Below are positions 14,858 to 44,362 of a stretch of DNA of 48,504 bases, in pieces. Under the pieces are notes generated by a model that was not told the DNA's origin, did not search any database, and saw nothing but the letters and a program-made list of their open reading frames with translations. The stretch lies in contig CAZQPP010000003.1 in NCBI GenBank assembly GCA_964594295.1, positions 1 through 48,504 of the forward strand, given 5' to 3'. A program made the translations under genes and the position numbers. Origin of the DNA: an uncultured Myxococcales bacterium. Lineage in GTDB: Bacteria > Myxococcota_A > UBA9042 > UBA3505. Position 1 is the stretch's first letter; each line of letters begins with the position of its first letter.

Positions 14858-14909
14858 AGCCGTGCGCCTGATAGGCTGGCGCCGTGAATCAACCTCCACG
14901 GGGGTAGGC

Positions 14910-18496: not shown

Positions 18497-18562
18497 CAGC
18501 TGGCTAGACGGAGGCTGTTGCGCATAGCGCAAACACCCCGTAGCCAGCTGTGCCGTGGCTAC
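18497..18562. terminator. nested inverted repeats between convergent genes (a possible bidirectional terminator or RNA structure)
   Basis: CAGCTGGCTA (18497-18506) pairs with TAGCCAGCTG (18541-18550). This encloses the hairpin TTGCGC-ATA-GCGCAA (18518-18532). A further GTAGCCA/TGGCTAC pair (18540-18546 / 18556-18562) overlaps the permease stop codon. No U-tract follows. Confidence 0.3.
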
Positions 18563-21500: not shown

Positions 21501-21876
21501 CGGACGGAGCTGAGGCATGGCCCAGGCTCCAGAAGCGATCGTCGACGCCCAGGACCTGGACGGCTCCGACCTTCGCGGCGCCGTCGGGTGAGCTCACCAG
21601 ACCGCGCAACGAGAGGGCCGGCGCCACCACCGCGTCGAGCTCTTGCGCGAGCTCGTCTGCGAGGGCCTCGCGCACCGACCGCTCACCGGTCTCCAGGGAA
21701 AGATCCGTCGCCCCGAGGCGCAGCGCGGCCAGCTGCTCGAGGCTGTGGCGCAGCGTGTCCCCCATGGCGAGGGAGCCCACGACGATGGAGCTGGCCACGG
21801 CCACCCCGAGGGCCAGCGCGGCGTGGGGGCGCCGGTGGTGGCGGAGGTTGCGCAGCAGGAGCCGGAGCGTGGTCAT
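18559..21876 (-). CDS. ABC transporter permease, FtsX/MacB type, duplicated (two FtsX domains and two large extracytoplasmic domains)
   Basis: From chimeric track ORF 18559..22590, starting at ATG 21876 (MTTLRLLLRNLRHHRRP), giving 1105 aa. Two C-terminal-type FtsX segments are present (FAAILLSVLLFSLSLDARTPELGLALGLGFSPRR and LVVLRNLLERRRELAIMLALGFGPRE). The gene overlaps the ATPase gene in an ATGA. Confidence 0.85.
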   Translation of the reverse strand: MTTLRLLLRNLRHHRRPHAALALGVAVASSIVVGSLAMGDTLRHSLEQLAALRLGATDLSLETGERSVREALADELAQELDAVVAPALSLRGLVSSPDGAAKVGAVQVLGVDDRFWSLGHASAPSGVALNEALLDALAVPEGAPLVVRVDRPAPVAADTGLTPEAGRVEALRVRDWSVVGDDAFGRFSLRAEQASPLTLFVPLRRLQEETGSAGRTNLLLFGRPGGPPLGTDAAEAALRRTWRLADVEHEVRPLGQVEVRLGRAAEGSLSLHQSLLELRSDRVFLAPELAAAAEALPGAAGVLTYLVDELRHGDASTPYSMVSAVRWRNLPEPLPATLGDGEIVINEWLADDLSAGPGDTVELGFRVVDHGRRFLSRRRSFTVAAVVPLEGAAADRSWSPSFPGIEDEEHCRDWSTGFPLDFSRIRDRDEAYWAEHRGTPKAFVTLAAGESMWAGRFGTRTAVRLPAGDAAGVSKAVHAQADPRDLGLALRPVRAWSHAASQASYDFGELFVGYSFFAFFAAILLSVLLFSLSLDARTPELGLALGLGFSPRRARWLLWVEGAVVVTAGAIAGAAGGVAWAHLLLAGVGSLWSPVSAGSGLTLHVSAASVAIGCTVGAVATLAWTAVALRYRGRAAVRELLSATTAPAAAARRRGRAGPALAMAALAGAAILAASADPSSGHGAAGAYMGTGALLLAAGILGVRELLGRQGSGSARGLSRLSLGINNAARRPARSLSTVALLGCATFLVLSVSAGRRDPNAGAGLRASGTGGFALFAETTLPILQDLSTPEGRARAGVEIEPSEGTSFVSLRVHDGDEASCRNLNLATAPRILGVDPDALERRGAFRFLGIPSGAPAWSLLKERDTDTIPAIGDQATVYWALHRDVGDTVPFVDAAGRELELEIVAMMAGSVLQGSLVIAEDAFVERFPTDSGYRVLLVDAPAARAGDVAAALTRDLAHLGPSVEPAAARLGRFSEVENTYVAIFLAVGGLGLLLGCVGVGLVVLRNLLERRRELAIMLALGFGPRELRRSVFGEHALLVGAGVLCGALPAAVAAIPILWTDAAAVPWHQLILLTVALIVSGLAWAWLAAAAALRHPPLEALRRE

Positions 21877-22556
21877 CCGGGCTCCCGCGTCGGGACGAGC
21901 ACGCCGTCTTCCAGCCGGAAGGTGCGGTCCATACGTGCGGCCACGTCGGGCGAGTGGGTCACGACGACCAGCGCCGAGCCTTCGTCGCGGTTGAGCTCTA
22001 CGAGGAGCTCGCCCAGGGCCGCGGAGGCGCTGCGGTCGAGGGCGCCGGTGGGCTCGTCGGCGAGCACCACGGCCGGGGCGGTCACGAGGGCGCGCACCAC
22101 GGCGACGCGCTGCCGCTCCCCCCCCGAGATCTCGGCGGGCCGGCGCGCCTCGAGCTGCTCGAGGCCTACCCGCCGCAGCAGCGAGCGAGCGCGCTCCACG
22201 TCCTCGACCCTCGTACGGCGTCGCTCGGCGAGGAATGGCAGGAGCGTGTTCTCCAAGACGCTGAGGGCGTCCAGGAGGTGGTGCTCCTGGAAGACGAAGC
22301 CGATGGTCGCCCGTCGCAGCGCCGCCAGGCCGGAGGCGTCGAGGGAGGAGGTGTCGGCGTCTCGGATCCGCACGCTCCCCGACGTCGGCAGGTCGAGGCC
22401 GCCCATCAGGTTGAGCAGCGTGCTCTTGCCCGAGCCCGAGGGTCCTACGACCGCCGTCGTGGAGCCGGCGCCGACCTGCAGCGAGACACCCGACAGGACC
22501 TCGGCGCCGCCGCCGTATCGTTTGTGCACCGCTTCGAGATCGATGACGTGGCTCAC
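21873..22556 (-). CDS. ABC transporter ATP-binding protein (MacB/LolD-like)
   Basis: Track ORF of 227 aa with Walker A GPSGSGKST, signature ISGGERQRVAVVRAL and Walker B VVLADEPTGALD. Confidence 0.92.
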   Translation of the reverse strand: MSHVIDLEAVHKRYGGGAEVLSGVSLQVGAGSTTAVVGPSGSGKSTLLNLMGGLDLPTSGSVRIRDADTSSLDASGLAALRRATIGFVFQEHHLLDALSVLENTLLPFLAERRRTRVEDVERARSLLRRVGLEQLEARRPAEISGGERQRVAVVRALVTAPAVVLADEPTGALDRSASAALGELLVELNRDEGSALVVVTHSPDVAARMDRTFRLEDGVLVPTREPG

Positions 22557-23848
22557 GTCGCCCCTCCCCGCCTCCGGGCCGCTGCCTCACAGACGCGCCT
22601 CACGCTCGCCGCCATCCGTGAAGCGGTGTGGCGCTGCCGCACGGCGTCGCGTCCCCGCCGTGCCAGCTCCTCTCGCTTGGCCTCGTCGCAGAGCAGGGCG
22701 GCGAGGGCGTCGTCCAAGGACTCGGGCACCGAGGGGTCGTACAGGATGCCTCCTCCGGTGTCCTCCACGAGCTCCACGAAGGCGCCGTGACGCGGCTGGA
22801 CCACCGGGACGCCGGCGGCGAGGGCCTCGTAGACCGAGCGGCCCGACGACTCCCACGGCTCAGCGGGCACGGAGAACACGGTGAGCCCCTTCAAGAACGA
22901 GATCTTCTCGTCGCGCCCGAGGTCGACCTCCCAGGAGACGTCACCGGCGAAAGGCGAGGTCGCGAGCCGGCGCCTCAGCTCGGCGATGGTGTCGCGATCA
23001 GCCGGGACGGTGGTGCCCGCCACGTGGAGCCGGAGGTCTCGCAGCTCGTCTCGCTGCTTGAGGCGACAGAAGCTGTCGACCAGTCGAGCGAGGCCCTTGT
23101 CCTCACACTGCCGGGCGAGGTAGCCCACGACCGGCGGCTCGGGCGCCGCCCCCTCGACCGCGTCGTAGCCCGAGAGATCGAGCCCGGTCGGTACCAGCGA
23201 CAGCCGCCCCTCTTCCACTCCGAGCCGCTGCGCCATGCGCTCGCCGTGGTAGCGGCTGAAAGCCGCGAAGGCGGAGACCTCGCCGGCGCGCTCGCAGAGG
23301 AGGGCCCAGGCCTCGCTCCGGTAGGGCTCGGGGAGCGCGCGCAGGAAGGTCTCCTCCCCTTGCAGGATGCACACAACCTGGGCGCCGGTCGCTTCGAGCA
23401 GCGAGCGCGCCAGGCCGAGGAGCAGCACGTTGGAGAGGCAGACGACGTCCGGGCGCTGCTCCGCGAGCCATCCGGCGAGCGCGCTCACCTCGGCGGCCTG
23501 CTTGCCGGTCTCGCCCCGGAGCGTGGAGACGGTGGTCTTCCCGAGCACCGACGCACGGGTCATCGTGCTCCTGCGCCCGGCCCAGCGCATGATCGACGGA
23601 CGCGACAGCAAGGCCGCGACCGGACGTGCCAGCCAGGAGAGCCCCATCTGGCGCAGCCCCACGCGGATGCCGTTCAAGAACAGCGGCGCGTGCGGTGCCT
23701 GTGGCTCGTCGAGCAGCGCCGGCAGGTACAGGGGCACGGTGATGACGTCCACACCGATCTCGTGCAGGCCGCGCGCCAGCGCGTTGTCGCGCAGGCAGGT
23801 GCCGCAGTAGAAGCCGCCCGCGCCGGGCGTGAGCAGGGCAACCCTCAA
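22553..23848 (-). CDS. glycosyltransferase family 4 (GT-B, group 1)
   Basis: From chimeric track ORF 22553..25033. The TTG 23848 start gives (M)RVALLTPGAGGFYCGTCL. The C-terminal motif EPWESSGRSVYEALAAGVPVVQPRHGAFVELVEDTGGGILYDP is typical of GT4. The gene overlaps both neighbours by 4 nt. Confidence 0.85.
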   Translation of the reverse strand: MRVALLTPGAGGFYCGTCLRDNALARGLHEIGVDVITVPLYLPALLDEPQAPHAPLFLNGIRVGLRQMGLSWLARPVAALLSRPSIMRWAGRRSTMTRASVLGKTTVSTLRGETGKQAAEVSALAGWLAEQRPDVVCLSNVLLLGLARSLLEATGAQVVCILQGEETFLRALPEPYRSEAWALLCERAGEVSAFAAFSRYHGERMAQRLGVEEGRLSLVPTGLDLSGYDAVEGAAPEPPVVGYLARQCEDKGLARLVDSFCRLKQRDELRDLRLHVAGTTVPADRDTIAELRRRLATSPFAGDVSWEVDLGRDEKISFLKGLTVFSVPAEPWESSGRSVYEALAAGVPVVQPRHGAFVELVEDTGGGILYDPSVPESLDDALAALLCDEAKREELARRGRDAVRQRHTASRMAASVRRVCEAAARRRGGAT

Positions 23849-25065
23849 GGCTTCTTGCTCTCCGGCGCCGGCTTCTTCTTCGCGGGCTCGCGCTTCGCGC
23901 CGAATGCGAAGACGCGGCCCTCCTCGCTGCCCACCACGACCACGCCGCCGGCGACCGCGGGGGAGGCGCTGACGGCGTCGCCGAGGTCGTAGGACCACTG
24001 CTCCTTCCCGTCGGCGAGGCCCAGGACGTACAGGCGGCCGTCCCCCGAGCCGACGATCACGTGCGAGCCGGAGATCACCGGTGAGGAGTCGACCTGGCCG
24101 TTGGTGCGGTGGGTCCACACCTTCTCCCCGGTCCCGCGGGCCAGGGCGTACACGTTGCGATCGCGGGCGCCGAAGATGACCATGTCCCCGTGCACAGCGG
24201 CCGACGAGATGATGCCGTCGGGCCCCAACGAGCGCTCCCAGCTGACGCGCGGGGCGCCCAGGTCGACGCGGACGAAGCGCCCGTCGTGGAGGCCGATGAA
24301 GGCGTCGCCGCCGTCGATGGCCACCGAGGCGCCCATGTAGGACTCGAGGGCCGCCGGCGGGAGCTTGGAGCCGTCCGAGACCTTCACCCGGTGCAGGAAG
24401 CCGTCGCAGCCCCCGGCGAGCGCGATCCCGGCCTGGATCGCCGGCGTGGCGTGCACGTAATTGCCGGTCTCGTAGGACCAGGCCGCCTTGCCGGTCGCGC
24501 CGTCGACGGCGTGGATCTTGCCGTCGTAGCTCCCGACGACCACGCGACCGCCGGCGTCGGCGTTGGCGCCGCCCAGGATCTTGTCGCCGGTGGCGTAGCT
24601 CCAGCGCAGCGCGCCGGTGGCGGCGTCGAGGGCGTAGAGCTTGCCGTCGGCGGCGCCGGCGATGACCGCTCCGCCGTGCAGGAGGGGAGGCGCCTCCACG
24701 GCGCCGCCCGCGGTGAAGGCCCACTCCACGGCCCCGCTCGCGAGCGACACGGCGCGGATCTTCTTGTCCTTGGAGCCGAAGTAGGCCCTGCCGTCGCCGA
24801 CGGCCGCCGTCGACTTCACGGCCCTCGAGGTCTTCACCTCCCAGCGCAGCTCCAGCGGCAGCGACACCGTCGAGCGCGCCACGCCGCGCTGCTCGGGGCC
24901 GCCGCGGAAGCTGGGCCAGACGCCGGTCTTGCCGGCCGTCAGCGCAGCGGCGCCCGCGCGAGCGGCGCCGGGCTCGGGCTCGGGCTCGGGAGGGCGTGTG
25001 CGCTTGGTGCAACACGCGCCCAGCACGGCGCACAACGCGGTGGTGAGCAGGAGCCTGGCTCTCAT
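23845..25065 (-). CDS. PQQ-like beta-propeller repeat lipoprotein
   Basis: Track ORF of 406 aa with the lipobox LGAC in MRARLLLTTALCAVLGACC, followed by WPSFRGGPEQRG. Repeats include YALDAATGALRW, HAVDGATGKAAW, YALARGTGEKVW and YVLGLADGKEQW. Confidence 0.88.
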   Translation of the reverse strand: MRARLLLTTALCAVLGACCTKRTRPPEPEPEPGAARAGAAALTAGKTGVWPSFRGGPEQRGVARSTVSLPLELRWEVKTSRAVKSTAAVGDGRAYFGSKDKKIRAVSLASGAVEWAFTAGGAVEAPPLLHGGAVIAGAADGKLYALDAATGALRWSYATGDKILGGANADAGGRVVVGSYDGKIHAVDGATGKAAWSYETGNYVHATPAIQAGIALAGGCDGFLHRVKVSDGSKLPPAALESYMGASVAIDGGDAFIGLHDGRFVRVDLGAPRVSWERSLGPDGIISSAAVHGDMVIFGARDRNVYALARGTGEKVWTHRTNGQVDSSPVISGSHVIVGSGDGRLYVLGLADGKEQWSYDLGDAVSASPAVAGGVVVVGSEEGRVFAFGAKREPAKKKPAPESKKP

Positions 25066-26363: not shown

Positions 26364-26366
26364 CGG

Positions 26367-29883: not shown

Positions 29884-29893
29884 GCCCGGATCC

Positions 29894-30703: not shown

Positions 30704-30718
30704 CGCGGTCGCCGGAGC

Positions 30719-32113: not shown

Positions 32114-32445
32114 GGTCATCCTCCGTCCCCGATCCGATGTGGCGGAGCGGAGACGGTGCCACGGGGCGGGGGACGATGGCAAGCCGACGGGCTCGAATCA
32201 GGGCCGCCGGCGTGCCGGCGTGCGCCCTCGCAGGCACTTCGCCTTTGACACCGCGCCGGCCATCCCGTACTTCAGCCCGCGTGGCCCGGGCTTGTCGTCC
32301 GGGCTCCGGTCCCTGTCGGGGCGGTCCTGCCGCCCATTCGCCCCGCGGTCTCTCGCGGGCATCCGACGCGCCGGCTCCAGTGCCGGGCCATGTGAGCACT
32401 CGGCGCCCCCGGAGCAGGATCGCTTCCCGTGCCGAAGGAGCCTCC

Positions 32446-32664: not shown

Positions 32665-32749
32665 GCGCTCTCTCGCGACCGGCGCTGACGAAGGTGTCTT
32701 GAGCGCGGATCCGCCTTCGCCATTCTTGCGGACGTGCTAGCGTGCGGCG

Positions 32750-34268: not shown

Positions 34269-35786
34269 TCACCGGCGGAGCGTCAGCGCGCCGGTGGGAC
34301 AGGCTGCCACGCAGGCCCGCGCGCTCCGCGTGAGCGCTTCTTTGAGGGTCGCGCCGGGCGGAGGGGCCACGCGGCGTTGGGCGCCGCGGCCCATGATCGC
34401 CAGGCCTACCGGCTCCGAGGCCTCCCGGGCGGCGTGCACGCACGCGCCGCAGCCGATGCACTTGCCCGGCTCGAACACGACCTCCGGGTGGCTGGTGTCG
34501 CGCTGCAGCGACCCGCGCGGGACCGGGTGGCGGCCCCGGCGGGCGCCGTAGCGGCTCGCGAGGGCGCGCAGCTCGCAGTCGTCCGCGGAGCCGCAGGCGC
34601 ACTCCAGGCACCTGCTGGCTTCGCGGGCGGCCTCCTCGGCGCTTCGGATCTCGCCCGCCGCGGGGCCGTGGGGCGCTCGTCGGGCCAGGCGGACGAGGTC
34701 ATCCCGGCCGACCTTCCCCGCGCGGGACGTGTGCTGCCTCGCTGAGGGCGCGGGCTCGGCGCCGGCGAGCCGCCGGCCGACCGCGCCGGCGAGGGCGCGA
34801 CCGGAGGCGCAGGCCCGGACGAGACGCTCGGTCGGCGCGACCGCGGCGCCGCCCGCGAACACCCCCTTCGCCGATGTCTCGAGCGTCGTGGTGTCGGTCC
34901 AGACGAGGCCCTCGTCCAGTCGGAGCCCTTGCTCTTGTCGCGCCGGGTCGCCGGCTCCGGTGGCGATGAGGACGGCGTCGTACGCCCGGCGCAGCTGCTC
35001 GAGGGGCAGGTCTCGCCCGACGCAGCACCCGGTCTGCGCCTCCAAGCCCAGCTCCCGGAGCGCCGTCAGGTCCGCCTCGAGGACGGCGGCCGGGAGGGCG
35101 CCCGCCGAGACCTGCTCTCGGAGAGACCCGCCGAGCTCGCCGGCGCGCTCGAAGACCGTGCACCGGTGGCCCCGCACGAGGAGGTGGAAGGCCGCGGACA
35201 GGGCTGTCGGCCCGCCGCCCACGACCGCCACGCGGCGCTCCGTCGGTTTCGCCGGCTCCGGGGTGTGGCCGGGGGCCGCTGCGGCGTATCGCTCCAGGCG
35301 CTGGATCGAGCCCGGCGCGTCGAGGCGTCCGCGGCGGCAGGCGGTCTCGCAGGGGGCGTGGCAGAGGTGGGCGAGCGTCCCTGGCAGCGCGTGGGCGGCG
35401 CGCACGAGGGCCGCGGCCTCGTCGAGGCGCCCCGCCGACAGGTGGAGCAACACGGAGGGGACGTCGAGGCGAGCGGGACAGGCGGCGCTGCAGGGCCCCG
35501 TGCAGTCCCCGAGGTGCTCGGCGAGGAGGAGCTCCACCGCCGATCGTCTCAACTCGAGGAGGCGCGCCGACTCGGTCACCACCACCATGCCCTCGCGAGC
35601 GCGGGTGGCGCAGGCGGGGACCGGCTCCCCGTCGGCCTCGACGACGCAGAGCATGCACGAAGCCGTCGCCGGTCGACCCTCGCCGTAGCACAGGGTGGGC
35701 ACCTCGACCCCCGCGGCCCGGGCGACGTCGAGGATGGAGGCGCCGCCTGCGGCGTTGACCGGGGTGCCGTTGAGGTCGAGCTTCAT
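34269..35786 (-). CDS. 2Fe-2S ferredoxin domain fused to a GltD-like NAD(P)H/FAD oxidoreductase, with C-terminal 4Fe-4S motifs
   Basis: Track ORF of 505 aa. The N-terminus is NuoG/Fdh-type (MKLDLNGTPV...LCYGEG...ASCMLCVVE...PACAT). CTGPCSAACP and CHAPCETACRRG are GltD N-terminal clusters. VAVVGGGPTALSAA is a dinucleotide fold. KGVFAGGAAV and the C-terminal CIGCGACVHAA...CVAACPTGAL are also present. Confidence 0.85.
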   Translation of the reverse strand: MKLDLNGTPVNAAGGASILDVARAAGVEVPTLCYGEGRPATASCMLCVVEADGEPVPACATRAREGMVVVTESARLLELRRSAVELLLAEHLGDCTGPCSAACPARLDVPSVLLHLSAGRLDEAAALVRAAHALPGTLAHLCHAPCETACRRGRLDAPGSIQRLERYAAAAPGHTPEPAKPTERRVAVVGGGPTALSAAFHLLVRGHRCTVFERAGELGGSLREQVSAGALPAAVLEADLTALRELGLEAQTGCCVGRDLPLEQLRRAYDAVLIATGAGDPARQEQGLRLDEGLVWTDTTTLETSAKGVFAGGAAVAPTERLVRACASGRALAGAVGRRLAGAEPAPSARQHTSRAGKVGRDDLVRLARRAPHGPAAGEIRSAEEAAREASRCLECACGSADDCELRALASRYGARRGRHPVPRGSLQRDTSHPEVVFEPGKCIGCGACVHAAREASEPVGLAIMGRGAQRRVAPPPGATLKEALTRSARACVAACPTGALTLRR

Positions 35787-38128
35787 CTGCCTTCACCTCC
35801 GTCGCGCGGAGAGACCGTGGTGACGGCGTCGAAGACACACACGTCGGCGCAGATCCCGCAGCGGCTGCACGAGGAGAGATCGACGGCGTGGCGTTCGTAG
35901 GGTCGCGCCTCGATGGCCCCGTCGGGGCATGCCGCGGCGCAACGGGTGCAGCCCGTGCAGGCGTCGCCGATGCTCACGTCGACGAGCGCCCGGCAGCGCC
36001 CGGCCGGGCAGATCCCGCGCACGTGGGCCTCGTACTCCTCGCGGAAGTGGCGAAGGGTCGTCAGCACGGGGCTGGGCGCCGAGCGCCCGAGGCCGCACTG
36101 GCTGCCCCCCTCGACCAGCGCGCTCAGGCTCTCGAGCTCCGCGAGGTGTGCAGCCGAGGCGCGCCCCTCGCACAGGTCCTCGAGCAGGTCCCGTATTCGG
36201 CGGGTGCCGACCCGGCAGTAGGTGCACTTGCCGCAGGACTCGGCCTGCGTGAACTCGAGGAAGTAGCGCGCCACGTCCACCATGCAGTCGCGCTCGTCGA
36301 GCACCACGAGACCGCCCGAGCCCATCATGGCGCCGATCTCCCCGAGGGACTCGTAGTCCAGCGGGGTGTCCAGCAGAGCGGCGGGTACGCAGCCCCCGAG
36401 GGGACCGCCGACGAGGATCGCCTTGAGCGCGTGGCCCTCGAGCACGCCGCCGCCGATGTCGAAGACCAGCTCCTTCAGCGTCGTGCCCAGCTCCACCTCG
36501 ACGAGGCCGCCGTGCACGACCTTGCCCGCCAGCGACAAGACCTTGGTCCCGGCCGCCTTCTCGGAGCCGAGGTCCGCAAAGGCGGCGGCGCCGTTGCGGA
36601 GGATCCACGGCACCATGGCGAAGGTCTCGACGTTGCTCACCAGCGTCGGGGCGCCGTCCAGGCCGTGCTCTGCGGGGTAGGGCGGGCGGACGGTCGGGAT
36701 GGGGCGGGCGCCCTCGAGGGAGGCGATGAGCGCCGTCTCTTCGCCGCAGACGAAGGCGCCGGCGCCGCGGCTCAGCGAGACTCGAAGCGGCGCCATCGCT
36801 TCCGGCCACCCGCCCTCCTCGAGCCGGTCGATGGCCTCGGCGATGCGCCGCACCGCGTGGGGGTACTCGGTTCGAACGAAGACCACCGCCTCGGAGGCGC
36901 CCACCGCGTGGGCGGCGATGGCCATGCCCTCGAGAACGCGGAAGGGGAAGGACTCGAGGAGCATGCGATCCATGAACGCACCCGGATCGCCTTCGTCCCC
37001 GTTGCAGATGACCGTCTTGGCGCCGCCCGGCGTGGATCTGACGAGCTCCCACTTGCGGCCCGCGGGGAAGCCCGCGCCGCCGCGGCCGCGGAGACCGCTG
37101 CGCGAGACCTCGTCGCAGACCTCGGCCGCCGTCATCTCCAGGGCGCGCCGCAACGCTTCGAAGCCCCCGCGCGCGACGTAGCCCTCGAGGTCGAGGGGCT
37201 CGCCCTCGCCGGGGTGCTCGGTGGCCACGTGGCGCTGCCGTTCTCGCTGCTCGGTCAGCCACGGCTCCCACGCATCGGCGAGGTATGCGTCCGGCAGCGC
37301 GCGGGTGTCCTCGGTGACGAGGCCGTCGACCACGAAGTCGAGGGCGCGCCGCACGCGCTGCGCGATGCCCCTGGGCGGGGCGTGGCGCCGGAGGATGTTT
37401 CGGGCGGCGGCGGGGTCGACGTTGGCGTAGCGCGTGACCGCGCCGCTCGGCTCCACGATCTCCACCAGCGGCGTGGCGCTGCACAGCAGCTCGCAGCTCG
37501 CGGCCTGTAGCGCGGCGGGAGCTCGCAGGTCGGCGATGCTCCGGGAGAAGCTCCCGAACACACGATCCGCGCCTCGAGCCGCGCAGCAGGAGTCCACGCA
37601 GACGCGCACCTGTACGCCTCCGCGGCCGGCGGGCGCCTGCGGGGCCGAGGGCGGGAGCAGCGCCTCGCGGGCCTGCTCGAGGAGGCGTGGCGCGTCGTCG
37701 GGCGCCACGGGACCGTAGAGGGTCTGGTCGATCTGCACGGCGGGGGCGAGGGCGCAGCAGCCGAGGCAGGCGACCTTGGAGACGGTGAACTCACCGTCGG
37801 GGTCGGTGTCGCGGCCGTCCTCAAGATCGAGGGCGCGGATGAAGGCGTCCGTGACCCTGTCTGCGCCGCGCAGGTGGCAGGCGGTGCCGTGGCAGACGCG
37901 CACGAGGTGGCGCCCGGCAGGCTCGAAGCGAAAGGCCGCGTAGAAGCTCGCCACGCCGTAGAGGTCGGCGCGCGGGCGCTCGAGGGCGTCGGCGAGCCGG
38001 GCCATGGCCTCGGGAGGGAGGTAGCCGCAGGCGCGCTGCACGTCGTGCAGCAGGTTCAGGACCTGCCTGCCGCCGCCCCCGTGGCGCTCGAGCGCGGACT
38101 CCGCCGCGGCGATGGGCGACGGGGCCAT
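35783..38128 (-). CDS. fused NuoE-like (2Fe-2S) and NuoF-like (FMN/NADH, 4Fe-4S) subunit with a C-terminal 2x[4Fe-4S] ferredoxin domain
   Basis: From chimeric track ORF 35783..39997, starting at ATG 38128 (residue 624), giving 781 aa. NuoE motifs are VCHGTACHLRG and VACLGCCALAP. NuoF motifs are GLRGRGGAGFPAGRKWE, ICNGDEGDPGAF and ESCGKCTYCRVG. The tail carries CTGCTRCAAACPDGAI and CSRCGICADVC. Confidence 0.9.
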   Translation of the reverse strand: MAPSPIAAAESALERHGGGGRQVLNLLHDVQRACGYLPPEAMARLADALERPRADLYGVASFYAAFRFEPAGRHLVRVCHGTACHLRGADRVTDAFIRALDLEDGRDTDPDGEFTVSKVACLGCCALAPAVQIDQTLYGPVAPDDAPRLLEQAREALLPPSAPQAPAGRGGVQVRVCVDSCCAARGADRVFGSFSRSIADLRAPAALQAASCELLCSATPLVEIVEPSGAVTRYANVDPAAARNILRRHAPPRGIAQRVRRALDFVVDGLVTEDTRALPDAYLADAWEPWLTEQRERQRHVATEHPGEGEPLDLEGYVARGGFEALRRALEMTAAEVCDEVSRSGLRGRGGAGFPAGRKWELVRSTPGGAKTVICNGDEGDPGAFMDRMLLESFPFRVLEGMAIAAHAVGASEAVVFVRTEYPHAVRRIAEAIDRLEEGGWPEAMAPLRVSLSRGAGAFVCGEETALIASLEGARPIPTVRPPYPAEHGLDGAPTLVSNVETFAMVPWILRNGAAAFADLGSEKAAGTKVLSLAGKVVHGGLVEVELGTTLKELVFDIGGGVLEGHALKAILVGGPLGGCVPAALLDTPLDYESLGEIGAMMGSGGLVVLDERDCMVDVARYFLEFTQAESCGKCTYCRVGTRRIRDLLEDLCEGRASAAHLAELESLSALVEGGSQCGLGRSAPSPVLTTLRHFREEYEAHVRGICPAGRCRALVDVSIGDACTGCTRCAAACPDGAIEARPYERHAVDLSSCSRCGICADVCVFDAVTTVSPRDGGEGR

Positions 38129-41100
38129 CACGGCGCTCCGATGCACAGGAGCTGGCCCTCGGTGCGCAAGAACATGCGCGCCTCGCCCCCGACGCGTGCG
38201 AAGGCCGGGCTCGCCGACATCTTCAGGCCTGCCAGGGAGGCCTCCCCGAGCACCCGCGGGTTGCCCTCGGCGGCCATGACCAGGGCGCGGCCCTTGCGGG
38301 TGAAGAGCAGCAGGCGGTCGCCGACGAGGCTCGGCGACACGTAGGTGCTCCCGCCGATGCGGTGGGTCCACAGGCGCTCGCCCGACTTCAGGTCGAAGCA
38401 GCTCAGCCTGCCGCTGCTCGAGACGGTGAAGACGAGCGCTCCGTTGCTCACCGGGCTCGCCACGTCGGGGAGGCTGCCCACCTCGCGCACCCACGCCGTG
38501 TGGCTCTCGGTCACGTCTCCGCGTCCTCCCCGGCGCAGCGCGAAGATGCCGTGTCCCTCCATGACCCCGACGACGAGCTCGCCGGCCAGCACGGGAGAGG
38601 GCGTCGCGAAGCCGCCGAGCTGCTTGGAGCGCCAGATCTCCTCTCCGGTGGCCGCGTCGTACTCGATGACCCACGGCGGGGCTGCCGTGACAAGGCGCGG
38701 GCCCTCCGGCCCGTCCGCGACGAAGGGGGTCGTCCAGGAGGCCTCCACGTCGCGTTCGCGCTTCCAGCTCAGCCGGCCTGTGGCGGCGTCGTAGGAGCGC
38801 AGGGAGGAGAGGTCCCCGCTGGGGCCTGTCTGGTCGAAGGGCACGATGAGCTGATCGCGCCAGATGATGGGCGAGCTGGCGTGGCCCCACTGGTTCTGGG
38901 GCAGGCCGAGGGCGTGCGCCCAGACCCTGCGCCCGGCGCGGTCGACGGCGTGCAGGTCTCCGTTGGCGAAGATCGCGTAGACACGCTTGCCGTCGGTCGC
39001 CGGCGTCGAGGCCGCGAAGACGTCTCGCTCGTAGACCTCCGGCGCCTCCTTGGGGCTGGTGCGGAGCTCGCCTGCCTCGTAGCGCCACAGCGTGTCGCCG
39101 GTCGCTGCGTCGAAGGCGAAGATCGCGCGGCGGTCCTTGTTCGCGCCGACGGCGTAGACGCGGCCGTCCCAGACGACGGGCGAGCCCGCGCCAGCGAGCG
39201 GCACGGGCGCGCGCCAGACCACGTTGCGGCCGGTCTCCACGTCGAAGTCGAGGGGCACCTCGGTGAGGGCTGTGCGTCCGGCGCCGCCGGGGCCGCGGAA
39301 GCGCGGCCAACGCGCCTCCGCTCCGCCGTGCTCGACGGCCGCCGGCACGGCCCGCTCGGGGGCGCGCAGCGCGCCCGCGACGGCGAAAGAGCTCGCGAGC
39401 AGGAGCCCGCCCGTCGCGGCGACGGACCAGCGACCCTGGCGTTTGCGCCGGCGTGCCGAGTCGGGCGCTTGCGGCTCGGTCGGGGCCTCCGGCGACGTGC
39501 GGAGCGAGCTGCCGATGCGCAGCGCGAGGAAGAAGATCACGAGCCCGAAGACCAGGAGCGTGCCTCCGGTCTCGCTGAGGGCGCGCCCCCGGAAGTGGGC
39601 ACTGCGCAGCTCCAGATCGAGGGCGCGCACGCGCTCCTCGAGGTCGACGGTGTCGGCGCCCGCCGGAGCGCTCGCCAGGCTCCGCTTGGCCTCCGTCAGG
39701 GCCTCCGGCGGCGCGAGGATGCTCGGCTCCTCGGCGGCCGGGCTGTTGAAGAGCAGGAGCGTCGCCACGACGAGGCAGAAGACGGCCGAGAGCGCGGCCG
39801 AGAGGTCGGCGGCGCGGCGAATGGCCTTTCGCGAGGGAGGCTCGTCGGTGCGTGTCGAGGCGGGCGCTCCAGGGAGCACCCCCGCTGCCAGGGGCCGCGC
39901 CGGAGCCGCGGCTTTCTCCTCCGGGCACCTGTCGTAGCAGCGCCCGCAGGCGACACAGTGGCCCGGGTCGGCCTCGTAGTCCTCGCGGCGCCGCCACCCC
40001 GAGAGGCTCAGGAGCTTGGCCCAGAACAGGAGGCCGAGCCAGAGGCCGCCGACCATCGCGCCGGCGCGGACGCGGGCCTCGGTCGCGTCGGCCTCGGCCG
40101 TGACCTCCGACGTGCTACGCGCCGCGCGGCGGAAGGCCTCGATCTGGTCTTCGGCGACGGCGTCCAGAGCCTCGCCCCGTTCCACGGCGGCGAGGGCGTC
40201 CCCGAGGCGGACCGCCTCGTGCGTGCGGGCCAGCGGCTCGCCGACGAGGTGGCCCGCCGCGCCCGACGCGAGCAGGACCACCGGCAGCAGCGCCAGGATG
40301 AGCCGGATCCGCTTGCGTCCGGCCGCGCGCTGCGGAGCCCGGAGGCTCTCCGTGGGCACGTCGATAGCCTCGTAGGGGCAGCTCTCCTCGCACAGGCGGC
40401 ACTGTACGCACCGATCGGTGAAGATGCCGAGCCGCCAACGCGCCAGCGGGGCGAGCATCGACAGGAGCGCGCCGTAGGGACAGAGGTAGCGGCAGTAGGG
40501 GCGGCCGACGAACATCGAGAGCAGCACGAGGCTCCCGCCGAAGACCAGCATCGGCGTGGTCCCGCTCAGGCGGAAGATGCCCACGAAGGGGTCGTACTCG
40601 CACACGACGAAGGCGGCTCCGGTCGCCGCGAGGACCACGGCGAGGGCGAGGTAGGCGTGGCGCACCATGCGGAGGCCGTCTTCCAGCCACCGGGGCACCC
40701 GCACCGGCCACACCAGCACGGCCTCCTGCAGGGCGCCGTGGGGACACACGGCGGCGCAGAACACACGCCCGAACAGGAGCACGAAGGCCAGCGGAGCGAG
40801 GAAGAAGGCCACGACAGCGAGGGGCGCCGCGTAGCCGGGGTCGAAGACGGCGAGGGCGACGTTCTGCAGCGAGCCGATGGCGCAGACGCAGCCTTCGCGC
40901 CAGAACCCGAAGTAGGCGAGGCTGAATAGGCTCAGCCACACCAGGCCTCGTCGCGAGCGCTGCCGGTGCACGAGATAGGCCGCGGCGGCGAGGGCGAGGC
41001 AGAGCACGGCGATGTCGAGGTGCTCGAGGAGCAGCGAGCGCGGCGCCGGGGTCTGGAGGATCGGCGCCACGTAGTCCGGCCCCAGGTCCGGCGGCGGGAA

Positions 41101-41190
41101 GCGCTGCTCGGCGGCCGCGCGCGCCACGGGCAGCGAGAGCAGGACCGGCGTTGCCAACCATGGCAGTGCTCCGGCGGCCGTGCGCCTCAC
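38128..41190 (-). CDS. NapH/NosR-type membrane iron-sulfur protein fused in frame to a PQQ-like beta-propeller (1020 aa)
   Basis: From chimeric track ORF 38128..41505, starting at GTG 41190 (residue 106, a GTGA overlap with the upstream stop). Two CX3CP motifs (GRVFCAAVCPHG and GRPYCRYLCPYG) lie between hydrophobic helices, and two 4Fe-4S motifs are present (CVQCRLCEESCP and CVACGRCYDRCP). Further hydrophobic segments follow, then RRRKRQGRWSVAATGGLLLASSFAVAGAL, WPRFRGPGGAGR (W codon at 39309) and a ~390-aa propeller running to the stop codon. Confidence 0.85.
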   Translation of the reverse strand: MRRTAAGALPWLATPVLLSLPVARAAAEQRFPPPDLGPDYVAPILQTPAPRSLLLEHLDIAVLCLALAAAAYLVHRQRSRRGLVWLSLFSLAYFGFWREGCVCAIGSLQNVALAVFDPGYAAPLAVVAFFLAPLAFVLLFGRVFCAAVCPHGALQEAVLVWPVRVPRWLEDGLRMVRHAYLALAVVLAATGAAFVVCEYDPFVGIFRLSGTTPMLVFGGSLVLLSMFVGRPYCRYLCPYGALLSMLAPLARWRLGIFTDRCVQCRLCEESCPYEAIDVPTESLRAPQRAAGRKRIRLILALLPVVLLASGAAGHLVGEPLARTHEAVRLGDALAAVERGEALDAVAEDQIEAFRRAARSTSEVTAEADATEARVRAGAMVGGLWLGLLFWAKLLSLSGWRRREDYEADPGHCVACGRCYDRCPEEKAAAPARPLAAGVLPGAPASTRTDEPPSRKAIRRAADLSAALSAVFCLVVATLLLFNSPAAEEPSILAPPEALTEAKRSLASAPAGADTVDLEERVRALDLELRSAHFRGRALSETGGTLLVFGLVIFFLALRIGSSLRTSPEAPTEPQAPDSARRRKRQGRWSVAATGGLLLASSFAVAGALRAPERAVPAAVEHGGAEARWPRFRGPGGAGRTALTEVPLDFDVETGRNVVWRAPVPLAGAGSPVVWDGRVYAVGANKDRRAIFAFDAATGDTLWRYEAGELRTSPKEAPEVYERDVFAASTPATDGKRVYAIFANGDLHAVDRAGRRVWAHALGLPQNQWGHASSPIIWRDQLIVPFDQTGPSGDLSSLRSYDAATGRLSWKRERDVEASWTTPFVADGPEGPRLVTAAPPWVIEYDAATGEEIWRSKQLGGFATPSPVLAGELVVGVMEGHGIFALRRGGRGDVTESHTAWVREVGSLPDVASPVSNGALVFTVSSSGRLSCFDLKSGERLWTHRIGGSTYVSPSLVGDRLLLFTRKGRALVMAAEGNPRVLGEASLAGLKMSASPAFARVGGEARMFLRTEGQLLCIGAP

Positions 41191-41744
41191 CGGTCGGTGC
41201 TCTTGAGGATGTAGGGATTGGCCGCCGGTACGCGGGAGATCGCCTCGGCCGGGCACTTCGCCCCGATCGCGCACTCGTTGCAGCGGACGCAGCGGTCGTG
41301 GCGGATCTGCAAGAAGACCGATCCGTTGCCGAAGTCCCTGCAGGCCTTTACGCAGCGCCCGCAGGCCACGCACAGGTCCTCGTCGATGCTGTACTCGTAG
41401 TAGGGCTCCCGCACGTAGCGCCGCTGCAGCGCGTCCGTCGGGCACACGAGGTTCTCCGCGCCCGAGGTGCGGGCCGCGTGCTCGAGCTCGAAGTAGGCCG
41501 TGCACAAATCACAGTAGCCGCAGATGGCGTGCACCCGCACCGCGCGAACGGCCGAGGGGTTCTGCACGCAGTTGGTGGCGCAGCGGCCGCAGGCGATGCA
41601 CTTGTCGGGGTCCAGCTGCCAGACCGTGGCGCCGGACGTGCCGATCCAGACGAAGGCTCCGGCGGAGCCCGCGACGCCGGCGAGCAGCGCCTTCCGTGCG
41701 CCCCTTCGCAGGAACTCGCGGCGCGTCAGCGCTCCGTCAGCCAT
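41187..41744 (-). CDS. Tat-exported 4Fe-4S polyferredoxin (NapG-like)
   Basis: Track ORF of 185 aa. The twin-arginine motif TRREFLRRG is followed by a hydrophobic stretch. Four Cys clusters are present (CIACGRCATNC, CGYCDLC...CP, CVACGRCVKAC and CVRCNECAIGAKCP). Confidence 0.85.
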   Translation of the reverse strand: MADGALTRREFLRRGARKALLAGVAGSAGAFVWIGTSGATVWQLDPDKCIACGRCATNCVQNPSAVRAVRVHAICGYCDLCTAYFELEHAARTSGAENLVCPTDALQRRYVREPYYEYSIDEDLCVACGRCVKACRDFGNGSVFLQIRHDRCVRCNECAIGAKCPAEAISRVPAANPYILKSTDR

Positions 41745-41949
41745 CGGTCACCACCTCTCGGAGCCCGCAGCGGGCCGCGCGCACGCAGCCCCGGCAGCCG
41801 GCGGAGCGAAGCCGCGGCGCCTCGCAGGTGAGGGCCTGGCGCGGCGCCCGCTTGTCGGCGAGGGAGAGCCAGGCGACGCCTCCGAGGGCGCCTGCTGCCG
41901 CGAGTCGGCCCAGCGTGCGCAAGGCGTGACGACGGGACACCGCTTTCAC
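41737..41949 (-). CDS. small (70 aa) protein with a twin-arginine-type signal and a C-terminal C-x10-C-x2-C-x5-C motif
   Basis: A track ORF whose start overlaps the upstream stop by 4 nt and whose stop overlaps the NapG-like start by 8 nt. The sequence is MKAVSRRHALRTLGRLAAAGALGGVAWLSLA...CEAPRLRSAGCRGCVRAARC. Its Arg/Ala-rich composition lowers confidence that it is translated. Confidence 0.55.
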   Translation of the reverse strand: MKAVSRRHALRTLGRLAAAGALGGVAWLSLADKRAPRQALTCEAPRLRSAGCRGCVRAARCGLREVVTDG

Positions 41950-42908
41950 CGCTGCACCTCCTCGAGCTCTTCGAAGGCTCGGACCTTCATGGAAACCGGG
42001 TCGAGGACGTAGACAATCCCCGCGGCGTCGGTGGCCACGTCGAGGCCCTCGGTGCCCGGCTCAAACCAGCTCGGGCCGGCCACCATGGACACCAGCTTCC
42101 CGTCGGCCGCGAGCACCTTGACGCGCGCGATGGCCTTCTCGGCCGTGACGACGCGGCCGCCGCTCAGCGGCGCGATGTTGATCGGGTTGCAGCACCCGCA
42201 GAAGCGCTCGGTCGACGTGCCGTAGGCGCCGAAGGCCCCGAGCGGAGCGCCGTCGAAGGTGTAGAGCTCGAGGCGATGGCGGCCGGGGTTGGCTACGACC
42301 AGCCGGTCGGGCAGCGCGAAGAGGTCCAGGTAGGGGCGGTAGACGACGATCCCCGGGATGCCGCGCGCGTCGTCCTTCTCGGCGATCCGGGAGAGCAGCT
42401 TTCCTTCGTTGTCGTAGCGCAGCACCGTCATGGCGCCGGCGTCACCCACGAACACGGAGTCACCGGTCACGGCGACAGACCTCGGCATCGACCTCTCGTC
42501 GCCCGAGCTCCAGCGCTGCAGGACGCTGCCGTCGTCGCCCACGGCCGCGACGTGATCGGGGGCGCACACCAGCAGACGATCGGGCGGCGCGACGGTGACG
42601 CAGTAGGGCTCGAAGGCCAGCTTGATCTCACCTGCCGGGGAGCCGTCGGAGCCGAAGACCCGGATGCTCCTGTCACCGGCGACGAGCACGACCGGCCCAC
42701 CCGAGCGCTCGTCGACCGCGACGGCGCGCGCCTCGTCGAAGCCCGTGGCGATCGCGCCGATCTCTGTGTAGCCGTGGAGCTCCGCCCCGGCGGGCGGTGC
42801 CCGCATGTCCTCGAGCCTCGGCGGCTCGTCGTCTCGGCCCAGGCTCAGCGCGAGCGCGGCCGCGAGACAGGCCAGGGCCGCCAGGACCGCCATCAAACCA
42901 CGGCTCAC
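41946..42908 (-). CDS. NHL-repeat-like six-bladed beta-propeller protein with an N-terminal membrane anchor
   Basis: From chimeric track ORF 41946..43748, starting at GTG 42908 (residue 281), which has GGGAGGGGAG upstream. The anchor is MAVLAALACLAAALALSL. Repeated segments of the type 'A.avAvd..g...VaD..n.ri..f...G' are present, along with an unusual FCGCCNP motif. Confidence 0.75.
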   Translation of the reverse strand: MSRGLMAVLAALACLAAALALSLGRDDEPPRLEDMRAPPAGAELHGYTEIGAIATGFDEARAVAVDERSGGPVVLVAGDRSIRVFGSDGSPAGEIKLAFEPYCVTVAPPDRLLVCAPDHVAAVGDDGSVLQRWSSGDERSMPRSVAVTGDSVFVGDAGAMTVLRYDNEGKLLSRIAEKDDARGIPGIVVYRPYLDLFALPDRLVVANPGRHRLELYTFDGAPLGAFGAYGTSTERFCGCCNPINIAPLSGGRVVTAEKAIARVKVLAADGKLVSMVAGPSWFEPGTEGLDVATDAAGIVYVLDPVSMKVRAFEELEEVQR

Positions 42909-44362
42909 CTGCTCCCCTCCCGCACGTCGACACAGAGCATCCGGGTGTGATCGCGGACGAGGAGCCGCCCTCCGGCCAGGGCCATGGGCGCCCACGCGTC
43001 GGCGCCGTCCAGGATCTTCACGCTGGCGCGCTCGCGGTAGCCGGCGGGGGTCGCGTCGACCAGGGTGAGGACGCCGCTCGGGCTCCGGGTGGAGCCGCTG
43101 TCGAGGACCCAGAGCATGCCCTGGGCGAGGATCCAGTCGCCGTAGCCCTTGTAAAAGCGCCTGCGGGCGCCGCTCGTCCACACCTCCTCCCCGTCCTTGC
43201 TCAGGCACACCAGCTCGCCGCTCGGGCGCACCGCGTAGAGGTGGCCGTCGTGGAAGATGGGCGCGTGCAGCTCGACTCCCAAGACCTCCGCGTCTCGCTT
43301 CCACAGCAGCTCCGCCGCGACCGAGGCGCCCTCGTCGCGGAGGCGGAGCATGACGCAGCCGGCGTCGTATCCCGAGCACACCAGGACCCGGTCCTTGCCC
43401 ACGACGACGGGCTCGGGCACCCGGGCGATGGAGGCGCGGTTGGTCGTCTCGGTGAACAGGACGCTCCCGTCCTCCCCGTCGACGCCGGCGACCCCCGGCA
43501 TGCCCGAGTAGAGGTAGATGCGGCGTTCGCCGAGCGTCATGGGCGTGATCGAGGCGTGGGTCATTCCCCAAAGCGAGGTGTTGGGCGCTTCCCACAGGGC
43601 TTCGCCCGTCTCGAGCTCCAGGGCGGTCATCAGGACCTTGGGTCCAGCCGGGGCGACGATGACTCTGCCGCCGTCGACGAGCGGGCTCTGCGCGGCGTAC
43701 CAGTCCGGAATCCGGGTGCCGTAGCGGCCCACGAGGTCTACGGCCCACCGCAGCGCGCCGGTCCGCGCGTCGAGACAGGTGAGGTGCCCCTTCGGCCCGA
43801 GCGACACGACCGAGTCGCCGGCGACGGCGGGCACGGTCCGCGACATGCCGTGGTTTCGGCGGAGCTCGACGGCGTAGGCGTAGCTCCAGATCTCCCGGCC
43901 GTCGTCCAGAGACAGGCTGCGAAGCACGTCGCGCTGCCCTCTGCGGTCGTAGTCGAGGAGGAAGACGCGCCCGCGGTGGACGGCAGCACCGGCGTGCCCC
44001 TCACCGAGCTCCGTCGCCCAGAGCAGCTTCGGCTCGCCGGACCAGCTCGCCGCGAGGCGGACCTCCTCGGATCTCTGGCGATCCAGGTTGGGGCCGCGGA
44101 AGCCGGGCCAGCTCCCTGTCGCCTCCGACGGGCTCCCGGCGCCCGTCGTGAGGGTCCCCCGGGCGTTGGGTGGTGGGCCGGCGGAGCGCTTCGGAGGACG
44201 CGTGCGCTCCAGCTCGCTCTCCTTCGGGATCCGCGGCCCCACGTCGATCTGCGTCGCGCGGGCGAGCCAGACGACACCGGCGATGGCCAGGGCCGCCACC
44301 GCGACCGGTACCGTCTTTGCCAGAGCGTCGGCTCGCAATAGACCCTCGTGCTGTGGGAGCAT
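42905..44362 (-). CDS. PQQ-like beta-propeller repeat protein with an N-terminal membrane anchor
   Basis: From track ORF 42905..44602, trimmed to ATG 44362 (MLPQHEGLLRADALAKTVPVAVAALAIAGVVWLA). WPGFRGPNLDRQRS is followed by repeats such as SLSLDDGREIW, CLDARTGALRW and ALELETGEALW. Confidence 0.85.
   Translation of the reverse strand: MLPQHEGLLRADALAKTVPVAVAALAIAGVVWLARATQIDVGPRIPKESELERTRPPKRSAGPPPNARGTLTTGAGSPSEATGSWPGFRGPNLDRQRSEEVRLAASWSGEPKLLWATELGEGHAGAAVHRGRVFLLDYDRRGQRDVLRSLSLDDGREIWSYAYAVELRRNHGMSRTVPAVAGDSVVSLGPKGHLTCLDARTGALRWAVDLVGRYGTRIPDWYAAQSPLVDGGRVIVAPAGPKVLMTALELETGEALWEAPNTSLWGMTHASITPMTLGERRIYLYSGMPGVAGVDGEDGSVLFTETTNRASIARVPEPVVVGKDRVLVCSGYDAGCVMLRLRDEGASVAAELLWKRDAEVLGVELHAPIFHDGHLYAVRPSGELVCLSKDGEEVWTSGARRRFYKGYGDWILAQGMLWVLDSGSTRSPSGVLTLVDATPAGYRERASVKILDGADAWAPMALAGGRLLVRDHTRMLCVDVREGSR

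Follow-up and report, generated by a model that had tools for sequence, protein, structure and literature searches.

A NapH-like polyferredoxin fused to a BamB-like propeller belongs to a conserved operon that appears to link NAD(P)H to periplasmic propellers

The membrane protein NapH works with a periplasmic partner, NapG, and a cytoplasmic one, NapF, according to the studies cited in PMC5928378 (Brondijk 2002/2004; Kern and Simon 2008), and the cytoplasmic side of its iron–sulfur (FeS) motifs is established. Some partners of NapH-like proteins are propeller enzymes, namely NirS and ExaA (Meheust et al. 2021, eLife, PMC8238504). In the cytoplasm, bifurcating enzymes of the Bfu family are marked by an extra N-terminal [2Fe-2S] motif and a C-terminal 2x[4Fe-4S] domain, which the non-bifurcating homologues lack (Schut et al. 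2022). The survey of Bfu enzymes holds 17 clades of unknown function, and its only predicted membrane forms are Mbh-Bfu and Nuo-Bfu. Here, we analysed a 48,504-nt stretch of DNA (the window) from an uncultured Myxococcales bacterium (contig CAZQPP010000003.1, assembly GCA_964594295.1), in which a single gene joins a NapH-like polyferredoxin, three membrane helices and a BamB-like propeller. This fused gene probably represents, in a single chain, two subunits of one membrane redox complex that are usually encoded by separate, adjacent genes. Judged from sequence and gene order, the complex is widespread and appears to carry electrons from cellular NAD(P)H to propellers outside the inner membrane. 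Coordinates of all features are collected in Table 1.

The frame of the fused gene is open on the minus strand from 38128 to 41505, and a GTG start at 41190 that overlaps the upstream stop (GTGA) gives 1020 codons, the same length as the NCBI gene call on this contig. Pfam recognised both halves: Fer4_5 (PF12801) matched in two stretches (52.3 bits, gathering threshold 22), Fer4 matched twice (residues 256–276 and about 400–427) and PQQ_2 (PF13360) covered residues 650–1020 (101.3 bits against 27.6). The order RRRKRQGR, helix, WPRFRGP can be read directly in the translation. The original prediction, made from the letters of this DNA, had described one uninterrupted 1020-codon frame with two CX3CP motifs, two CxxCxxCxxxCP motifs, an Arg-rich stretch, a helix, WPRFRGP and a propeller. 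Translation and Pfam confirmed every element, on the minus strand, which had been left unstated. Third-position GC stays at 0.85–0.98 throughout the open reading frame (ORF), including the junction, and there is therefore no sign of a hidden frameshift. Long spurious ORFs are frequent on both strands of the window (GC 70.7%); one open frame of 1404 codons (35783–39997, minus strand) overlaps the fused gene in another frame, and only its last 781 codons (35783–38128) form a real gene.

Among 5.8 billion proteins, a homologue search picked out 15 of full length that contain both domain sets. The 14 that were aligned share 34–76% identity at 97–99% coverage with all cysteine motifs invariant, which places the fused architecture far beyond chance. 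These full-length homologues come from NCBI, JGI, ENA and Logan assemblies, in which the operon recurs as well. A fused gene with 74% identity, whose neighbours overlap likewise on both sides, is present in an independent ENA assembly, and the identical fused protein is also called on a second contig of 15.6 kb from JGI. Since fused relatives occur in independent assemblies, an assembly artefact is very unlikely; together with the continuous coding signal over the junction, this upholds the proposal of a genuine gene fusion.

The fused form is a minority variant of a common split arrangement. The same search yielded proteins of 570–700 aa consisting of the N-terminal half only, and the next gene, whose start is no more than a few bases away from their stop, encodes the three membrane helices and the propeller. 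When one genome per GTDB species was scanned, at least 593 loci with the NapH-like module were found, and the best 80 were taken further. Three of these were fused, 73 were split but adjacent and four were cut by contig ends, i.e. the halves are adjacent genes in 73 of 76 resolvable genomes, which are species representatives from many phyla. The fusion is thus a rare variant and not a unique architecture. In an exhaustive profile search of 1.84 billion cluster representatives, about 10 fused forms (50% identity level) stood in the top 150 beside more than 110 split three-helix propellers. The profile matches also contained tandem-propeller forms and others whose split falls behind the first FeS motif. 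Alternative boundaries were seen in some proteins of 720–735 aa, which start past the first FeS motif and extend to the propeller end, and some proteins of ∼1000 aa consist of the three-helix propeller followed by a second propeller (representatives P0122, P0171; P0032, P0034 and P0037).

Six split junctions were inspected and agree with translational coupling: the two genes either overlap (ATGA, GTGA) or are spaced by under 30 nt, and some are parted by a single in-frame stop, so that repeated fusion is easily reached. In a neighbour-joining tree of the N-terminal module, which is crude, fused forms take at least nine separate positions among the split ones, which suggests that fusion arose repeatedly. 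The neighbours of the window's own form in this tree suggest Planctomycetota. The boundary of the split relatives falls at about aa 446–460 (nt ∼39810–39855), past the second FeS motif, and not within 39300–39700 as first thought. As a consequence, the three membrane helices belong to the propeller half.

The fused gene is part of an operon of seven minus-strand genes that runs from 44362 to 34269, with junctions that overlap by 1–8 bases and one gap of 11 bases. Across loci, the conserved gene order is propeller, NHL propeller, small four-cysteine protein, twin-arginine translocation (Tat) ferredoxin, NapH-like protein, three-helix propeller and two cytoplasmic genes. Every one of the 67 loci with enough upstream sequence encodes the Tat ferredoxin, and 66 of them encode the NHL protein; a counterpart of the 70-aa four-cysteine protein turned up in most of 47 other loci. 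The gene for a fused BfuC and BfuB (BfuCB) is carried by 54 of the 62 loci that extend far enough downstream. Among the eight loci without adjacent Bfu genes, several (Rikenellaceae-type Bacteroidales) continue with genes for an ACSF4-type propeller, a GT4 glycosyltransferase, an ATP-binding cassette (ABC) ATPase and a long FtsX/MacB permease. The species-representative genomes with the NapH-like component, at least 593 in number, belong to Planctomycetota, Verrucomicrobiota, Bacteroidota, Omnitrophota, KSB1 and other phyla, and cultured carriers include Draconibacterium sediminis JN14CK-3 and Sunxiuqinia elliptica CGMCC 1.9156. The source annotations are generic ('BamB/polyferredoxin', '4Fe-4S binding protein', 'NHL repeat-containing protein') or missing.

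The periplasmic subunits of the operon are conserved in detail. The RR pair and 16 cysteines of the ferredoxin, which is NapG-like in design, are kept in at least 90% of 79 orthologues. The NHL propeller was modelled with high confidence (predicted local distance difference test, pLDDT, 91), and its structural matches were only generic TRIM/Brat NHL domains. In NCBIfam, it gave only weak ScyF/ScyE matches (32 bits against a cut-off of 350), which do not indicate a function. The propeller encoded by gene 1 has many conserved polar residues, including His251, His349, Glu201, Asp217 and several Arg (numbering from an ATG at 44602). No thioredoxin-fold protein, cytochrome or molybdoenzyme is encoded in the operon.

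The two cytoplasmic genes are close homologues of those for the electron-bifurcating NfnABC and StnABC enzymes of the Bfu family, and their products may share the bifurcating activity. The 781-aa protein has a NuoE domain at residues 11–153, an N-terminal [2Fe-2S] motif and a C-terminal 2x[4Fe-4S] domain. In PDB, it matched 9bov_B (9e-177), 9n5u_B (NfnB; 3e-173) and 8oh5_B (StnB; 9e-167), and beyond the NuoE part it aligns end to end with these B subunits, including the N-terminal 2Fe-2S and C-terminal 2x[4Fe-4S] motifs. The entries were confirmed as NfnABC of T. sibiricus (9N5U) and StnABC of S. ovata (8OH5) (PMC10482914, PMC12018979). The protein thereby agrees with the definition of a BfuBC core, i.e. 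NuoE-like and NuoF-like parts with the extra 2Fe-2S and 2x[4Fe-4S] centres (Schut et al. 2022). The 505-aa protein matched NfnA (9n5u_A) at 6e-79. One of the two closest homologues of StnC is NsoC, a subunit of the NADPH-dependent sulfur oxidoreductase of Thermococcus litoralis (PMC10482914), and this likeness is a possible lead toward a sulfur-compound substrate.

The NapH-like half consists of an N-terminal signal-like helix, a conserved RFPPPDF segment and seven membrane helices, and carries two CX3CP motifs and two [4Fe-4S] motifs that are parted by a two-helix hairpin. The cysteines of the GCxC motif and C197 are kept in at least 90% of an 81-sequence alignment from many phyla. Hydropathy and AlphaFold secondary structure give the whole fused protein the signal-like helix and ten membrane helices. 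In 14 homologues, all predicted inside loops carry a net charge of +1.8 to +6.1 and all outside loops one of at most +0.6, and the positively charged loops are those with RSRR, both CX3CP motifs, both FeS motifs and RRRKRQGR. Loop charge thus puts the FeS motifs on the predicted cytoplasmic side and the propeller on the predicted periplasmic side, with three helices between the second FeS motif and the propeller. The periplasmic placement agrees with the single N-terminal anchor of a free-standing paralogue, and the earlier proposal that the propeller lies across the membrane from the FeS motifs is borne out by this analysis.

The earlier label of this half, NapH/NosR-type, holds only for a NapH-like core and its motifs. 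The layout of NapH/MauN proteins, two CX3CP followed by two CxxCxxCxxxCP motifs, is found, although an insertion of ∼125 aa with two helices parts the FeS motifs. Alignment with E. coli NapH extends from transmembrane helix (TM) 3 to the first FeS motif (21% identity, E = 9e-6), and the second FeS motif aligned separately. However, the scores stay below the cut-offs for NapH/MauN (TIGR02163, 45.6 bits against 213), the NapH equivalog (NF007013, 37.6 against 234) and NosR/NirI (NF046105, 40.3 against 1000). There is no FMN_bind match, and the N-terminal stretch in the periplasm measures only about 30 aa. The operon context of NapH/MauN (napA or mau genes, a NapG/MauM partner) is not reproduced, as no molybdoenzyme or cytochrome accompanies the gene. 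A PDB sequence search with this half gave generic ferredoxin motifs only, and no NapH or NosR structure. Compared with E. coli NapH, the N-terminal ∼120 residues (including GCxC), C197 and the ∼125-residue hairpin are specific to the subfamily, and these extra helices and cysteines fall outside the NapH/NosR label.

The fused propeller is BamB-like in fold. Its best Foldseek matches are BamB chains (TM-score 0.74–0.79 normalised to BamB, about 380 aligned columns, 16–18% identity), whereas pyrroloquinoline quinone (PQQ) and lanthanide dehydrogenases match over only about 0.5 of their own length; the propeller also dominated the outcome when the full-length model was used. The agreement with BamB is one of fold only, since the BamB model (TIGR03300) gave 73.7 bits against 285 and the propeller is fused or helix-anchored and not a lipoprotein. 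The description 'PQQ-like' in the original prediction is a Pfam label and did not survive: the PQQ dehydrogenase model (TIGR03075) gave 50.9 bits against 480, the propeller has about 390 aa against about 560–600 aa in that family, and PF01011 was passed as a partial, repeat-level match only (43 bits). No pqq genes were found within the window. Conserved positions in 68 propeller orthologues are nearly all Gly, Trp, Pro and Ser, with a few charged residues and one buried-looking Cys. Because of the BamB-like fold, the low PQQ dehydrogenase score and this pattern of conservation, direct redox chemistry by the fused propeller is not indicated; it is more likely a dock or substrate-binding platform than a catalyst. 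The preceding segment (aa 451–626) also contains a predicted periplasmic helical hairpin with conserved R522, D525 and R529, and the cytoplasmic RRRKRQGR loop.

A part for propellers in redox chemistry had also been proposed from the fusion. This stands for the operon-specific orthologue as a dedicated partner of the redox machine, but does not extend to the whole propeller family. Since adjacency of the two halves is strict in about 76 genomes from many phyla, this partnership now rests less on the fusion itself. The likeness of the fused propeller to the free-standing gene at 10857–12248 was also correct in its numbers (36 of 51 identical residues is an exact count), and overall identity proved to be 52%, but the architectures differ, as the propeller half has three membrane helices and the paralogue one. 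Six propeller genes lie in the window, of which only this paralogue is close to the fused propeller (52%, the rest 24–28%), and three genes for anchored PQQ_2 propellers stand together (10857–12248, plus strand; 12245–13819, minus strand; 14595–16145, plus strand).

Our favoured model combines these components into an outward electron route, for which the partnership of NapH with NapG and NapF and the NapH-like systems of Meheust et al. are precedents. The Nfn/Stn-like module would dock on the cytoplasmic face of the NapH-like subunit and oxidise NAD(P)H there. Its low-potential branch would feed the two cytoplasmic [4Fe-4S] centres of this subunit in place of a soluble ferredoxin. Electrons would then cross the membrane via the NapH-like core, with two CX3CP pairs at the inner face and three subfamily-specific cysteines at the outer face. 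The next carriers may be the Tat-exported four-cluster ferredoxin and the small four-cysteine protein, and the route would end in the periplasm at three or more propellers that form an assembly. With its three helices keeping it beside the conduit, the fused propeller would serve as the dock or substrate-binding platform, and better candidates for a reactive site would be the Cys-Cys pair of the NHL propeller and the conserved polar pocket of the gene 1 propeller.

Several points weigh against this model. No recognisable catalytic cofactor site was found in any periplasmic subunit of the operon, and the outward direction is one that we infer only. The ferredoxin scored below every NapG model and its match to E. 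coli NapG is weak (E = 5e-4). The full-length AlphaFold model has a predicted template modelling score (pTM) of 0.45, too low to speak on domain packing or contacts. Since 8 of 62 loci have no adjacent Bfu genes, the membrane and periplasmic core evidently can use another donor. Furthermore, the CX3CP pairs of the NapH family may be disulfides and not cluster ligands (PMC5928378), and electrons would have to pass through a NapH-family protein over about 30 Å of membrane. A more specific form of the model, which we put forward tentatively, is that this is the first Bfu-type bifurcating enzyme wired into a membrane: NADPH would be oxidised, NAD+ would be the high-potential acceptor, and strongly reducing electrons of the low-potential branch would be exported through the cofactor-poor conduit to the periplasmic ferredoxin and propellers. 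If so, it would reveal a new periplasmic reductive process in the Planctomycetes–Verrucomicrobia–Chlamydiae (PVC) group, Bacteroidota and relatives, serving as an electron sink or in envelope maintenance, and possibly coupled to a neighbouring glycosyltransferase and MacB-type exporter.

The periplasmic branch could alternatively be fed from quinol. In this case, the complex would be a NapGH-type quinol dehydrogenase or quinone reductase, in which electrons pass between the NapH-like subunit and the quinone pool in the way proposed for NapH, NosH and RdhC. The Bfu module would then either turn the whole into an NAD(P)H:quinone oxidoreductase or be a NapF-like accessory. This reading is favoured by the homology of the core to E. 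coli NapH, by the description of NapH as the quinol-oxidising partner of NapG (PMC5928378) and by the proposal of quinones, among others, as third substrates of Bfu enzymes; it also fits the eight loci whose membrane and periplasmic genes have no Bfu genes beside them. We nevertheless consider it unlikely: the protein falls well short of the NapH/MauN cut-off, no motif for a quinone site was identified, neither a cytochrome nor a molybdoenzyme is encoded in the operon as a partner, and the three substrate sites of the Bfu module (NADPH, NAD and ferredoxin) are accounted for without a quinone.

A thiol–disulfide relay at the periplasmic end, in place of a small-molecule reductase, is improbable to a similar degree. 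Here, one-electron FeS centres would reduce cysteine pairs (CX3CP, GCxC/C197 and the Cys-Cys of the NHL propeller) in a DsbD-like manner at the expense of NAD(P)H. Envelope proteins or lipids in need of reduction or repair would be bound by the propellers, and the function would be tied to the adjacent glycosyltransferase and MacB-type exporter. In favour are the invariant vicinal Cys-Cys pair in the NHL propeller and the three cysteines, specific to the subfamily, at the outer face of the NapH-like module. Disulfide formation has been suggested for CX3CP motifs (PMC5928378), and BamB-like and NHL propellers are mostly protein-binding scaffolds. In addition, a module of ACSF4-type propeller, GT4, ABC and FtsX genes is contiguous with the operon in 24–32 of 80 other loci, and Bat-type genes (BatD, VWA, TPR) adjoin it in one genome. 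However, a four-cluster Tat ferredoxin would be an unusual partner for a pure thiol relay, the operon encodes no thioredoxin-fold protein, the link to the exporter module is positional only and the Bat adjacency is confined to one organism.

Electrons might also flow inward, with the propellers oxidising a substrate like quinoprotein dehydrogenases and the ferredoxin passing electrons via the NapH-like subunit to the Bfu module, which would confurcate them with NADH to make NADPH. Bfu enzymes are reversible, the Pfam PQQ and PQQ_2 models match the propeller, and NapH-like proteins cluster with the PQQ alcohol dehydrogenase ExaA in 172 genomes (PMC8238504). The compact BamB-like fold, the low PQQ dehydrogenase score (51 against 480), the lack of conserved cofactor-type residues in the fused propeller and the lack of an FMN-binding domain, unlike the published ExaA-linked NapH-like proteins, make this very doubtful. 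Finally, although the window is a metagenome-type contig known here from assembly alone and the mostly split relatives have junctions that overlap by a few bases, so that one lost stop or frameshift would join two genes, an artefactual single ORF is scarcely credible given the identical JGI protein, the 74%-identical ENA gene with the same overlapping neighbours, about ten fused clusters at the 50% identity level and the alignment of both halves in one frame across a roughly 35-residue linker with high third-position GC throughout.

Table 1. Features of the fused gene, its operon and linked genes (positions in the 48,504-nt window)
Feature	Position	Strand	Remarks
Fused gene, 1020 aa: NapH-like polyferredoxin, three membrane helices, BamB-like propeller	38128..41190	-	
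NapH-like module, aa 1–450	39841..41190	-	Separate gene in split relatives
GCxC (C101, C103)	40882..40893	-	Periplasmic end of TM2 (predicted); no counterpart in E. coli NapH
CX3CP motif 1 (CAAVCP)	40741..40758	-	Cytoplasmic end of TM3 (predicted); translation, alignment
C197 (CxYDPF motif)	40600..40602	-	Periplasmic end of TM4 (predicted); aligned E. coli NapH position is Trp
CX3CP motif 2 (CRYLCP)	40477..40494	-	Cytoplasmic end of TM5 (predicted); translation, alignment
First CxxCxxCxxxCP motif, CVQCRLCEESCP	40375..40410	-	Predicted cytoplasmic; Pfam, translation
Second CxxCxxCxxxCP motif, CVACGRCYDRCP	39922..39957	-	Predicted cytoplasmic; about 140 aa past the first
Three membrane helices (TM8–10), aa 451–626	39313..39840	-	N-terminus of the propeller gene in split relatives
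WPRFRGP and eight-bladed BamB-like propeller, aa 627–1020	38128..39312	-	Predicted periplasmic
Operon gene 1: anchored PQQ_2/BamB-like propeller	42905..44362	-	
Six-bladed NHL propeller, 315 aa	41946..42893	-	N-terminal signal or anchor; invariant GCCNP (vicinal Cys-Cys)
Conserved 70-aa protein	41737..41949	-	RR motif, hydrophobic helix, C-x6-8-C-x2-C-x6-7-C
Ferredoxin, 185 aa	41187..41744	-	Twin-arginine signal; 16 conserved Cys (four [4Fe-4S] motifs); stop overlaps fusion start
781-aa fusion of NuoE-like and NuoF-like parts (BfuC-BfuB)	35783..38128	-	ATG shares one base with TGA of the fused gene
505-aa protein (BfuA/NfnA-like)	34269..35786	-	[2Fe-2S], GltD-type flavin adenine dinucleotide (FAD)/NAD(P)H domain, Fer4; ATGA overlap with preceding gene
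Four-gene module	18559..25065	-	About 9 kb from the redox operon
ACSF4-type/PQQ_2 propeller	23845-25065	-	
GT4 glycosyltransferase	22553-23860	-	
ABC ATPase	21873-22556	-	
FtsX/MacB_PCD permease, 1105 aa	18559-21876	-	
Free-standing single-anchor paralogue of the propeller	10857..12248	+	52% identity over 394 aa to the fused propeller (aa 627–1019)

The link between the four-gene module and the redox operon recurs across several phyla and is positional only. Many Planctomycetota have the module upstream of the operon, and Bacteroidota and others, among them Draconibacterium sediminis, have it downstream. In D. sediminis (locus L033), the downstream region (17245–23084) holds genes for an ACSF4-type propeller, GT4 and ABC/FtsX proteins, and the upstream region (2066–7938) encodes two extra PQQ_2 propellers, a LytS-type kinase and a LytTR regulator. 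In the window, a branched-chain amino-acid ABC transporter and an AMP-binding ligase (25269–32197) are encoded between the two propeller-linked modules. Convergent to the operon and 8 bp from the 3′ end of its last gene is a plus-strand gene (32741–34261) for a 506-aa protein with CxxCxxCC (PF03692), a putative metal-chelating domain. At its ends, the window encodes a large Ser/Thr kinase containing AAA_16 and TPR domains (1–4308, minus strand, running off the end) and a GH9 glycoside hydrolase (46486–48504, plus strand). Two loci from one organism, L003 (18575–23057) and L004, have genes for BatD, two VWA proteins and a TPR/SH3 protein beside the operon on the opposite strand. A general link to the Bacteroides aerotolerance (Bat) genes was rejected, since this adjacency occurs in one organism only among the loci fetched.

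The building blocks of the operon are each of a known kind (NapH-like conduit, Tat ferredoxin, Bfu module, BamB-like and NHL propellers), and their joint conserved operon is undescribed: a literature search on combinations of NapH, propeller, PQQ, NuoEF, GltD and Bfu found no paper on it, and papers on Chitinispirillum, Hydrogenedentota and Myxococcus CorSR proved unrelated. The fusion itself is a minor variant and the operon is the more interesting object, yet its recurrence defines how two subunits are oriented and in what stoichiometry, which is useful for structural work. If our model is true, it would add a membrane-spanning, electron-exporting form to the flavin-based bifurcating enzymes and supply a tractable model for transmembrane electron transfer in the NapH family. 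It would also offer a first functional context for part of the very large and unexplained 'PQQ-like propeller' families in these phyla. Since there are cultured carriers, D. sediminis and S. elliptica, the question is directly testable.

The operon resembles each of its closest described relatives in part. With NapGH, NosGH and MauMN, it shares the pairs of CX3CP and CxxCxxCxxxCP motifs in a polytopic protein, a Tat multi-cluster ferredoxin encoded just upstream and a cytoplasmic FeS partner. Relative to E. coli NapH, however, identity is only 21%, the N-terminus is longer by ∼120 aa, which hold a signal-like helix, two further helices and GCxC, the outer face has one more cysteine, and the ∼125-aa hairpin lies between the FeS motifs. 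Nitrate reductase, N2O reductase and cytochrome are all absent from the operon, and the partner is instead a propeller, sometimes fused. The NapH-like systems of Meheust et al. (NosR, PceC/RdhC and the NirS/ExaA clusters) share the use of a PF12801 membrane protein as a modular conduit from the cytosol or membrane to a periplasmic redox partner. Those systems are defined by an ApbE-flavinylated FMN (flavin mononucleotide)-binding domain that is not present here, their propellers are true cofactor enzymes, and neither Bfu-type modules nor a fusion have been described for them. As in NfnABC and StnABC, there are an FMN/NADH site, 2Fe-2S at the N-terminus, 2x[4Fe-4S] at the C-terminus and a GltD-type domain for NADPH. 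In contrast to those enzymes, which are soluble and use free ferredoxin, the genes here are translationally coupled to that for a membrane FeS protein, BfuC and BfuB are fused, and BfuA has about half the length (505 aa against 963–1172 aa). BamB, with eight blades, is the best structural match of the fused propeller, which differs from it in having an inner-membrane helix anchor instead of a lipid and a redox operon instead of bam genes.

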